31,798 nucleotides of DNA from Candidatus Sericytochromatia bacterium (GTDB taxonomy: Bacteria > Cyanobacteriota > Sericytochromatia > S15B-MN24 > UBA4093): the NCBI GenBank assembly GCA_044235265.1, contig JBIIHZ010000001.1, forward strand, positions 1-31,798. The letters run 5' to 3'. Made by a program: the position numbers and the translations under genes. Of this stretch, positions 6,001 through 8,757 are shown in pieces (within the stretch, counting starts at the first letter, position 1; each line of letters begins with the position of its first letter). The notes beneath the pieces were generated by a model. That model searched no databases, had not been told where the DNA came from, and was given only the letters and a program-made list of their open reading frames with translations.

Positions 6001-6816
6001 TCACTCGCCGTCCCAGTCGTCCTCGGAAAAGATGGGATCGTCATCGAGCCCGTCGTCGGGGAGGTCGTCCATCGACAGGTCTTCGAGCAGGTCGTCGAGA
6101 TCGCTGTCCTCGAGCAGTTCCTTCGACAGGTGCTCCTCGATGTCGTCTTCATCCCAGAGGTCTGGTACGTCGTCGGAATTCAAACCATCCACGAGGTCCG
6201 ACTGGATCCGCCTGATGGTGTTCCAGTCCAGATTCAGGCGCCGCGCCTCGGGCTGACGCGCCGCCATCGCGGCGACCATCGTGCTCGGTACGTTGACCGT
6301 GAGCACCTGCTCCGCCAGCCCCGGGGTGGCCCGCACGAAGGCCTTCAGGTGCAGCACCTTGCCTGCCCCGTGGTCGACCTGGAGGAACAGCGGGACGTTC
6401 CGGGGCAGGTCGAGCTTGAAGAAACCTCGGTCGTCCGTCCGGACGGAGGGGATGTCGGTGCGTGGACGCATGTCATGGCCCAGGACGCTGACCGTCGCGC
6501 CGGGGATGAAGGCCATCGCGCCGAGGTCGATCGATCTGGATGCATTCTGGATGCCCCAGGGGGCGACGGTCGTGAGCGGAGCCACCGTGGTGAGCGGTGC
6601 GACCGTCGTGAGATGGGCGAGCGAGTTGCCTGCCAGGGGGGCGACGGTCGTGAGCGGAGCGACGGTCGTCAGCTGACTCACCGGGGCGATCGCGGCCCCC
6701 GTGATGGCAAGCCGCGAGGCCGAATCCGGGATCGTGGCCATTTTCGGGGCGGGGCAGCCCAGCAAGCTGGCCGATGCCAGCGCGGTCAGGGGCATGAAGA
6801 GCGACGTGGCACGCAA
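6001..6816 (-). CDS. Putative lipoprotein A with 5 LTTVAP repeats, transthyretin/carboxypeptidase-regulatory-like beta domain and very acidic C-tail (271 aa)
   Basis: TTG at 6816 follows a GGGAGA RBS and gives signal peptide MRATSLFMPLTALASASLLG-C21 (lipobox). ITG..AP [repeats] ..PGATVSV..TDDRGFFKL pattern. Paralogous to 7984-8757. Confidence 0.8.
   Translation of the reverse strand: MRATSLFMPLTALASASLLGCPAPKMATIPDSASRLAITGAAIAPVSQLTTVAPLTTVAPLAGNSLAHLTTVAPLTTVAPLTTVAPWGIQNASRSIDLGAMAFIPGATVSVLGHDMRPRTDIPSVRTDDRGFFKLDLPRNVPLFLQVDHGAGKVLHLKAFVRATPGLAEQVLTVNVPSTMVAAMAARQPEARRLNLDWNTIRRIQSDLVDGLNSDDVPDLWDEDDIEEHLSKELLEDSDLDDLLEDLSMDDLPDDGLDDDPIFSEDDWDGE
6559..6672 (-). repeat. Coding 18-nt repeat, LTTVAP x2 + 8-aa spacer + LTTVAP x3
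   Basis: Units at 6655-6672, 6637-6654, 6595-6612, 6577-6594 and 6559-6576. Amino acids are identical; differences are at third codon positions only. Confidence 0.95.
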
Positions 6817-6872
6817 GGTCGGTTCTCCCGGGAAAGACAGGGCGCCCATGTTGTACCCGCCAGGCACTCGTT

Positions 6873-7970
6873 TCAAGATTTCCGGGAGGGCGAGGGAGCC
6901 TGGATCTCGGCCCAGGGTATCCCGAGTTGCAGGGCCTCGAACCGGATCTGACGGACGCTCGCGCGGGCACGGATGGCGGCGATGCGACTGGCGACCGTCG
7001 GATGGTCACTGAGCCAGGCGGGCATGCCGCGTCCCCGGTGGCGCTGCTCCATGCGCTCGAACAGGTCCACGAGCGGAGCGGGATCGATGCGGGCGCGCAG
7101 CAGCAGGTCGACGCCCTCGCGGTCGGCCTGCCGCTCGAGGTCCCGCCCGTACGAGGTCTGCGCCAGTTTCTGGAGAAGGTCCAGGTCGCCCAGGTGCGTG
7201 GCTTCCAGGAACAGCGCCAGGAACAGGGCCTGCAACATCGCCGTCGTGCCATGGCGATGCTCGACGTGCTGGATCTCGTGGGCGAGTACGCCCGCGAGGG
7301 CCTCGGCCGAGGGGGCGAGCGACACGATGCCCTGCGATACGACCACCTCGCCGCCCGGCAGGGCAAAGGCGTTCACGAGCTCAGGGTCCGTCAGGAAGGT
7401 GAGGCGATACGTGAAGCCGCGAGGCTGCTCGAGCTGTTCCGTCAGCTTCGTGAGCAGTCCCTCCAGGGCCCGGACACGCCGTGACCTGACCTCGAACGTC
7501 CCGGGCTCGCGCAGGGACCCGATGGCGAACCGGCCCAGCGCCCGGTCCGCTGCCAGGGGGACAAGGGGCAGGTACACCCGTCCGAGAGCGGGCAACCCCT
7601 TCGCGATCAGGAGGACGGTCAGCGCGATGGCCACGACGATGACGATCGAGCGCCGGCCGTCTCCGGGGTCCAGGATCGGACGGGCTTGGCCGGAGCGTCG
7701 CCCCAGACGCTGCCAGGCCTGGACCAATCGCCGATCTTCCAGCACCACGGAGGGGTTTCCCTCGCCGTCACCCCGGTGAGCCAGGATCAACCCGCTCCCG
7801 GCCTCGGCTCCGGACGCGGAGGTCAGGACGTGTTCCCGGAGCCAGAAGGCTGCGGAGCGATCCTCGAAGGTGAGCGCGATGCCCTCGGCCCGCACGTCTA
7901 CCGCGACCTCGCGCGCCTCGGCGCGCAGGCCATCGAAGTACGTGGCTTTTCCGCTGACGACGGCAGACAT
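6873..7970 (-). CDS. M48 family zinc metalloprotease with N-terminal domain and one TM helix (365 aa)
   Basis: VNAFALPGG, HEIQH (HExxH), downstream ERQAD and LSDHP motifs. AGGAGG RBS. N-terminal ATYFDG motif typical of the YjgN-associated M48 subtype. Confidence 0.92.
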   Translation of the reverse strand: MSAVVSGKATYFDGLRAEAREVAVDVRAEGIALTFEDRSAAFWLREHVLTSASGAEAGSGLILAHRGDGEGNPSVVLEDRRLVQAWQRLGRRSGQARPILDPGDGRRSIVIVVAIALTVLLIAKGLPALGRVYLPLVPLAADRALGRFAIGSLREPGTFEVRSRRVRALEGLLTKLTEQLEQPRGFTYRLTFLTDPELVNAFALPGGEVVVSQGIVSLAPSAEALAGVLAHEIQHVEHRHGTTAMLQALFLALFLEATHLGDLDLLQKLAQTSYGRDLERQADREGVDLLLRARIDPAPLVDLFERMEQRHRGRGMPAWLSDHPTVASRIAAIRARASVRQIRFEALQLGIPWAEIQAPSPSRKS

Positions 7971-7983
7971 GGGACCTCCTCGA

Positions 7984-8757
7984 TCAGCGACTCAGGAGGG
8001 TCTCGATCGTTTTCAGCAGAGCAGCGAGCAGCGGAGCCCGGGTCTTGAGGGCCTGCGAGTGGGCGAGGACGTCCCCTTCGCTGGACAGGTCCGGGATCGT
8101 GTCGAGCGGGATCTTCTCGGTCAGCTGGGTCATGAGGTCCCAGTCCAGGCGCTCGATTCCGGGGGCATCCTTGAACTTGTTTCGCACGAGGGTCGCGGCC
8201 AGCGTCGTCGGCACGTTGACATGGATGCGCCGGGTGGAGCCGGGGTCGGCCTTCACGTAAGCGAACAGGCAGAGCCGCTTCACCGTTCCGAAGTCGACGT
8301 TCAGGAACAGGGGGCGTCCGGCCGGGATCTCGAGACGGAAACTGCCGCTGGCGTCCGTCCGGCTCAAGGGGAACGTGGCCAGGGGTTCGAAGCGCGTGGT
8401 GAGGACGCTGATGGTCGCCCCGGGCACGTACGCATGCCGGGGCGGGGCGTCTTGAACCCGGAAGGGGGCGACGGTGGTCAGGGGGGCCACCGTGGTCAGC
8501 ATGGCCGAATCGCCCGGGGCGACCGGGGCGACGGTGGTCAGGGGGGCCACCGTCGTGAGCTGGTCGATCGGGGCCACGGCCACACCGGTGATGGTGGCCC
8601 TGGAGGTCGTGTCCGGGGTGCCGGGATCGGACGGCCGGGGTGCCTGTGTCGAGACGGGTGAGGCCGGACCGGGAGCCGTGGCTGCCTGGGTGCAGGCCGT
8701 CAGCGTCGCGACGGTCGCGATCATGGGAACCAGGTATCTGGAGGTCGGCAGGGGCAT
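7984..8757 (-). CDS. Putative lipoprotein B with 4 LTTVAP repeats (257 aa), paralogue of 6001-6816
   Basis: Signal MPLPTSRYLVPMIATVATLTA-C22. Shares ITG.A.AP..Q-LTTVAP, PGAT(I/V)SVL, RTD..G.F.L..P...PLFL.VD.G, VNVP.T and PDL motifs with lipoprotein A. Start is uncertain (TTG at 8802 is in frame). Confidence 0.8.
   Translation of the reverse strand: MPLPTSRYLVPMIATVATLTACTQAATAPGPASPVSTQAPRPSDPGTPDTTSRATITGVAVAPIDQLTTVAPLTTVAPVAPGDSAMLTTVAPLTTVAPFRVQDAPPRHAYVPGATISVLTTRFEPLATFPLSRTDASGSFRLEIPAGRPLFLNVDFGTVKRLCLFAYVKADPGSTRRIHVNVPTTLAATLVRNKFKDAPGIERLDWDLMTQLTEKIPLDTIPDLSSEGDVLAHSQALKTRAPLLAALLKTIETLLSR
8464..8559 (-). repeat. Coding 18-nt repeat, LTTVAP x2 + 8-aa spacer + LTTVAP x2
   Basis: Units at 8542-8559, 8524-8541, 8482-8499 and 8464-8481. 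Confidence 0.95.

Follow-up and report, generated by a model that had tools for sequence, protein, structure and literature searches.

LTTVAP arrays on Sericytochromatia lipoproteins: a selected peptide tag that may be read in trans

Two paralogous lipoprotein genes with LTTVAP arrays

This study concerns the hexapeptide LTTVAP, which is repeated in tandem in two lipoprotein genes (A and B) of a Candidatus Sericytochromatia bacterium. Both genes lie in the window, that is, the whole stretch of 31,798 nucleotides (nt) analysed here (assembly GCA_044235265.1, contig JBIIHZ010000001.1), whose positions are used throughout; all features listed are on the minus strand. Gene A (6001..6849, with an uncertain start codon at 6849 or 6795) encodes a lipoprotein with a transthyretin-like (CarboxypepD_reg-like) domain, a helical part and an acidic tail. 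The product of gene B (7984..8757) combines a transthyretin-like beta-sandwich with a helical bundle and ends in a C-terminal helix, without a donor-like strand. The two genes are paralogues (44% identity over 213 amino acids, aa). From the sequence, the lipobox cysteines were placed at 6754..6756 in gene A (LLGC) and at 8692..8694 in gene B (LTAC). A first, anchor-like beta-strand follows in each case: ITGVAVAP in gene B (8569..8592, within model strand E3-13) and, by alignment, ITGAAIAP in gene A (6682..6705), where the strand is assigned through homology to the gene B model.

The arrays come next. In gene A, a block of two LTTVAP units (6637..6672; units 6655-6672 and 6637-6654) is separated by the genus-specific spacer LAGNSLAH (6613..6636) from a block of three (6559..6612; units 6595-6612, 6577-6594 and 6559-6576). 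Gene B has two blocks of two units, at 8524..8559 (8542-8559 and 8524-8541) and 8464..8499 (8482-8499 and 8464-8481), around the spacer VAPGDSAM (8500..8523). Each array leads into a terminal motif of the form [YFWR]-x-[VIT]-Q, namely WGIQN in gene A (6544..6558; WRIQQ in the orthologue of genome G001) and FRVQD in gene B (8449..8463). The Asp/Glu-rich C-terminal tail of gene A (approximately 6004..6140) contains no donor-like strand; it is very acidic, with DDW repeats, and is retained in G001 and G002.

A first-pass annotation of this DNA had reported the nine copies. We confirm all of them at these positions, five in gene A and four in gene B, and the three codon strings that it quoted, both 8-aa spacers and the shared ITG.A.AP..Q context are correct. 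Two of its generalizations hold more narrowly. The hexamer is exact in nine of nine copies in this strain, but LMTVAP, LATVAP and one LTNVDR unit occur in orthologues; similarly, the spacer is exactly 8 aa long in genes A and B, but 9 aa long in two homologues and missing in the g3/g4 orthologues. No LTTVAP match occurred in 100 shuffles of the whole window. Neither gene matched any family above cut-off in Pfam, NCBIfam or PDB sequence searches, a word-index homologue search returned two proteins only, and an ESM Atlas search returned only unnamed lipoproteins. We found no promoter signal and no useful terminator signal.

A genome-wide word and its spellings

In the source genome (G000; 2.3 Mb assembly, 82% complete), LTTVAP occurs 23 times in the predicted proteome, where 0.13 copies are expected by chance. 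The hexamer or a one-residue variant is found on 11 proteins, all 11 of which have a lipobox, and carriers across relatives fall into about ten sequence clusters. Arrays occupy three positions: after strand 1 of the sandwich (genes A and B), after strand 2, and in the tether of proteins that have no such domain. Some carriers instead show dispersed single copies with arbitrary spacers, and one source-genome protein has hexamers and octamers in tandem. The passenger domains of tagged proteins include kelch and NHL propellers, TIG and Ig-like domains. Further words in the same slot (G000 C227, C342, C348, C334 and C337; L187; L218) are LLDSRGNP-type and LIDVGTGV-type octamers, LQQAAG (six copies in G008) and LTAADP.

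A strict hexamer pattern matched seven of seven genomes in three genera and none of 40 others. This apparent restriction is an artefact of the pattern, because the orthologous slot holds other words in other lineages: LTAVAP in G006, LANVTP or LTQVTP in G026 and G018, LTNASP in G016 and G022, LNNASP or LNNTSP in G014, and LNNTSA in G012, G020 and G024. The words share the pattern L-x-x-[VAT]-[AST]-[PAG]. G012, G014 and G016 each have their own word at four to six unlinked loci, with synonymous codons scrambled, and the spelling differs genome-wide between the congeners G012 and G014. In all eight genomes that have members of both of two ancient paralogue families, the two share one word class (permutation p 0.003; p 0.04 when four lineages are counted). 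The first-pass annotation had named freely varying orthologues as one observation that would refute its proposal. Spelling does differ between lineages, but the change is genome-wide and concerted, not free.

Hexamers were found in families f1 and f4 only; eight-residue Asn/Gly words occupy the same loop across the order. The lipoproteins with these octapeptide repeats have the same domain and the same terminal motif, but their units are eight residues long with Asn/Gly, as opposed to six with Pro, and are order-wide. In a collection of species genomes, 23 of the 25 tandem matches came from four metagenome-assembled genomes (MAGs), which are G001, G002, G004 and G007. One MAG, DATNQJ01 (G007; L023, L024, L031, L038), is titled Stenomitos sp. 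but groups in the family of the source genome, so that its title looks wrong. A single viral match and four low-GC metagenome matches (L326-L328, L335) look unrelated and were set aside.

The nine units of genes A and B have eight distinct DNA spellings, with proportions of differing sites of 0.53 at synonymous (pS) and 0 at non-synonymous (pN) positions; synonymous sites are near saturation. On average, units differ by 3.62 nt between genes of one genome and by 3.58 nt between genera, compared with 3.44 nt for random encodings. The original proposal of selection on the peptide thus stands, as the word is kept while synonymous divergence is about that of random codon choice; its qualification "rather than slippage" was too strong. 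Units within one array are only 3.19 nt apart, closer than between genes (p 0.001). One pair of strains with identical flanks has five versus eight units, four of the eight being identical in DNA, and in another pair with 95% identical flanks the arrays are almost wholly re-scrambled. Within-array likeness and changes in unit number between strains thus show that units are gained and lost fast while the peptide is held, and this turnover provides a route for a favoured new spelling to sweep each array. Selection on the peptide and slippage are both active. Residue frequencies by position within the unit, which the search pattern partly predetermines, play no part in this argument. Slippage arrays in other cyanobacterial genomes consist mostly of DNA-identical units at single loci.

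Fold, terminal motif and chain position

The gene B model (pLDDT 81) comprises a transthyretin-like sandwich followed by helices (residues 132-206 helical), and residues 22-54, which cover the repeats and the following motif, score below 50. The model of a seven-unit homologue gives the same picture of a low-confidence loop and a confident domain. In the gene B sandwich, the repeats are thus predicted to lie in a disordered loop following strand 1. Fold comparison of gene B returned CarboxypepD and CnaB domains and others like them, with Z 7-8 and an rmsd of 2.1-2.6 A over 79-92 residues; a Z of 7-8 reflects a common arrangement and is uninformative on function. Likeness to CarboxypepD_reg/transthyretin-like and CnaB-type domains (PF13620, PF17802) is supported by 17 of 25 aligned members matching PF13620 with E up to 0.05 (best 6e-7). 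Gene B, however, reaches 14.5-15 bits against a curated cut-off of 32.3, a likeness at the level of fold only, and a long repeat loop here replaces the short hairpin after strand 1 of CarboxypepD_reg-type domains.

The pattern R-x?-[VITL]-[QLAM] occurs within 22 residues after 54 of 69 arrays, versus 8 of 67 control stretches. A narrower motif occurs in the N-terminal regions of 42 of 169 lipoproteins versus 148 of 1710 other proteins (p 4e-9; shuffles averaged 12 and never exceeded 22), and the lipoproteins that carry it are mostly repeat-less. Aligned on the Gln, the sites have the common form [YFWR]-x-[VIT]-Q, which is probably a processing site. Gene A does not have the motif Arg, which its G001 orthologue keeps. 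The idea that the motif is a second signal-peptidase-I site was rejected, as the residue after the Gln is unconstrained.

In co-oriented pairs of lipoprotein genes, the last eight or so residues of one product resemble the first strand of its neighbour, just before the terminal motif. For example, YGDINLEVM-stop faces YGRLNLSVRWP (L031), GNLALEVR-stop faces GYLFLKVRWP (G000 C399) and GQLDLGIN-stop faces GRLDLVIRWP (L285). Over 30 de-duplicated operon pairs, the mean best score between C-terminus and first strand is 9.8; permuting the partners lowers it to 7.2 +/- 0.8 (p 0.002), and random lipoprotein ends give 5.8. This mimicry is compatible with strand exchange, although it may alternatively be a remnant of gene duplication. 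Operons with mimicry include G000 C399, C160, C178, C243, C258, C295, C114 and C103, as well as L031, L195, L196, L211, L213, L285 and L128. The two-domain first genes of C178, C243 and C258 also resemble their own first strand, which would make self-polymerisation possible. The repeat itself was rejected as a donor strand, since its L and V are three residues apart instead of alternating.

Tagged genes tend to come first. An upstream lipoprotein gene precedes 1 of 16 word-bearing genes versus 13 of 26 plain-motif genes (p 0.006; contigs are short and both classes include a few false members), and in that one case, as in similar swapped orders, the tagged protein still seems to be the donor. 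One three-gene chain consists of a tagged protein, an adaptor and an NHL propeller. Genes A and B are stand-alone tagged proteins.

The layout of the operons with mimicry recalls type V pili (FimA/Mfa1), described as unique to Bacteroidia; there, cleavage of the loop that follows the anchor strand allows the C-terminal strand of a partner to take the place of that strand (PMC13655056). By sequence layout, the system around the LTTVAP proteins appears to work in a similar way, a likeness that implies no membership. Both rely on lipoprotein precursors with a lipobox, encoded in operons, and on a transthyretin-like sandwich in which the lipidated tether leads into the first strand, itself followed by a loop with a conserved motif. 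In both, C-terminal strands resemble the first strand of the partner (here at the sequence level, in operon pairs), and the last gene is often a propeller without a C-terminal donor-like strand. In contrast with type V pilins, the products of genes A and B have one sandwich plus helices, not two sandwiches, and no donor strand; the motif Arg is not invariant, the Gln being more constant; the host lies outside Bacteroidia; and no repeated genome-specific word has been described for type V pilins. No fimbrillin match was obtained in Pfam, and type V pilins are not among the fold matches listed. A search for a gingipain-type (C25) protease gave no match in five genomes, and none in control genomes either.

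A putative tag and its possible readers

The interpretation that we favour, with a probability of about 45%, is that LTTVAP is a multivalent tag on chain starters and singletons, read in trans by one putative co-evolving envelope factor. Exported lipoproteins would carry a portable linear tag in several copies, for which the hexamer is the spelling used by this lineage; the tag would be unfolded and located in an exposed loop or tether directly before the putative processing motif. Tagged proteins would either begin a chain of lipoproteins linked by strand exchange or stand alone, like those of genes A and B. One shared envelope factor, acting in export, docking or maturation, would bind the word, with more copies giving more avidity. 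Slippage would renew the units, selection for fit to the factor would hold all genes of a genome to one spelling, and a shift in the factor would shift that spelling.

What the data show is how the word is distributed, that its spelling is genome-wide, that selection and slippage act together, that the arrays are predicted to be disordered, that a motif lies next to them, that C-termini mimic first strands, and where tagged genes stand in a chain. A word that changes in step at many unlinked genes suggests a single reading partner. We infer that partner, as well as cleavage, actual strand exchange and a surface location. The repeated word is real and selected, and it is undescribed in the literature searched: no paper was found for the hexamer and octamer spellings tried or for Sericytochromatia lipoprotein repeats, most subscription journals being outside coverage.

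Several observations weigh against this interpretation. LRTVAP, LKTVAP and LSTVAP variants stand side by side in one genome, and hexamers coexist with octamers in one genome. Neighbourhood clustering revealed no reader, as no enzyme or transporter recurs beside tagged genes. Two small word sets show low between-gene distances and arrays re-scramble fast, so that old gene conversion may have contributed. Some homologues of the domain have degenerate repeats or none, some chain starters have no repeat, and no tandem hexamers were found in G003 (97% complete); the tag is therefore dispensable in places. Because the product of gene A closes with an acidic tail, that of gene B with a helix, and neither with a donor strand, the chain model can be extended to them by homology only. 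The motif patterns, finally, were picked after inspection of the data.

Lipoprotein sorting signals near the lipid anchor, such as the lipoprotein export signal of Bacteroidota, are single, charge-based and adjacent to the Cys. Like them, the word is a short portable motif on many unrelated lipoproteins of one cell; unlike them, it is tandem and uncharged, lies 20-110 residues downstream and varies in spelling between genera. It is possible, although less likely than not, that the base subunits of Sericytochromatia surface complexes are labelled by a repeated peptide password whose genome-wide spelling co-evolves with a dedicated reader, a previously undescribed sorting or self-recognition code, and that type V-like, protease-triggered strand exchange has arisen outside Bacteroidia. 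The data also reveal what looks like a donor-strand assembly system for lipoproteins in the non-photosynthetic sister group of cyanobacteria, which would explain a large part of the lipoprotein operons that lack annotation in these genomes. The genome-wide word offers a handle for finding its partner, the switch between G012 and G014 within one genus being a natural experiment, and tag/reader or strand-exchange pairs might provide orthogonal tools for protein engineering. By presence alone, candidate readers are the three to six secretins per genome and the 18 S8-motif proteins of the source genome. That number of S8 (subtilisin-type) proteins (18 loci, most with lipoboxes) is unusually high, and the genome also has four secretins.

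A different role for the repeats, which we regard as improbable, would be to act on a loop-cutting protease, either by recruiting it as an exosite or by serving as a decoy, so that cleavage is slowed and the base of the chain stays attached. When F, Y, W or L follows, V-A-P is similar to AAPF, the standard subtilisin substrate. Repeats and terminal motif move together as one cassette, S8-motif proteins are plentiful as just described, and type V anchor pilins stay attached since they are uncut (PMC13655056). However, the arrays of genus g7 run into SA-RR or SP-RR and lack an aromatic residue there; changes of the word are not matched by comparable changes in the terminal motif; and the M48 metallopeptidase gene located between genes A and B has no match at E 1e-20 in two array-bearing genomes that are 96-100% complete. 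The processing role first suggested for the repeat fits the adjacent [YFWR]-x-[VIT]-Q motif better.

Somewhat less probable still is that the words stack on each other as a beta-solenoid or beta-zipper, in which case co-assembling proteins would share a spelling with no separate reader. In-register contact alone would select for genome-wide identity, and Asn, Gln, Thr, Val, Leu and Gly are frequent in the words. Read from V, the hexamer fits the loose pattern of the left-handed beta-helix hexapeptide repeat (PF00132), with which it shares a period of six and a fit in one register. Yet there is no Pfam match to PF00132, Pro recurs every sixth residue, Arg/Lys variants occur, and no single register fits both LTTVAP and LQQAAG. 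Copy numbers range from 1 to 11 with no multiple-of-three rule, copies may be isolated, scattered or broken by spacers, and the arrays do not form the long in-phase runs of three-unit beta-helix coils. As monomer models also leave the four-unit and seven-unit arrays disordered, the beta-zipper proposed in the first-pass annotation is disfavoured.

The modification site that it also proposed has lost ground, and we consider glycosylation or phosphorylation of the units on Thr/Ser (or Asn) quite improbable. The units are exposed, disordered and Thr-rich, and are carried by lipoproteins; PMT-family (PF02366) matches exist in five of five genomes tested; and f4 words contain N-x-S/T. On the other hand, equivalent words share no hydroxyl position and three have no Ser or Thr at all, which makes glycosylation unlikely; the words lack the invariant acceptor residue of a glycosylated repeat, and one orthologous array has Ala at position 3 in six of six units. 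Moreover, STT3/PglB was not found in five genomes (three at least 90% complete), whereas four control genomes gave matches. Least probable of all is that the arrays are nearly neutral filler of a permissive loop, generated by slippage, passed between genes by occasional recombination and under loose compositional selection only. Exact duplications between close strains and homologues with degenerate or missing repeats would fit this. Against it stand the contrast of saturated pS and a pN near 0, the presence of one word on unrelated scaffolds and also in single copies, the parallel switching of several families, and the mostly DNA-identical, single-locus slippage arrays of other cyanobacteria.

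The M48 gene between the paralogues (6873..7970; PF01435, E 3.6e-25) has a weak DUF7092 match at the N-terminus of its product. It is linked to the paralogues in the source genus only and, given also the absences mentioned above, was rejected as a dedicated reader. A second M48 lipoprotein gene (G000 C302) faces, in convergent orientation, a gene of the same domain family that has no repeats, and an M48 homologue at L314 (G014 C3) has one in-frame TGA inside the match. Directly upstream of a nine-unit lipoprotein gene, a gene (G000 C391 815-1378) resembles signal peptidase II (lspA) by eye, likewise in G001 and G002. Finally, L170 (G009 C45) has a start like that of a flagellar L-ring protein, with three F/L-x-G-[IV]-A-P units after the signal region.

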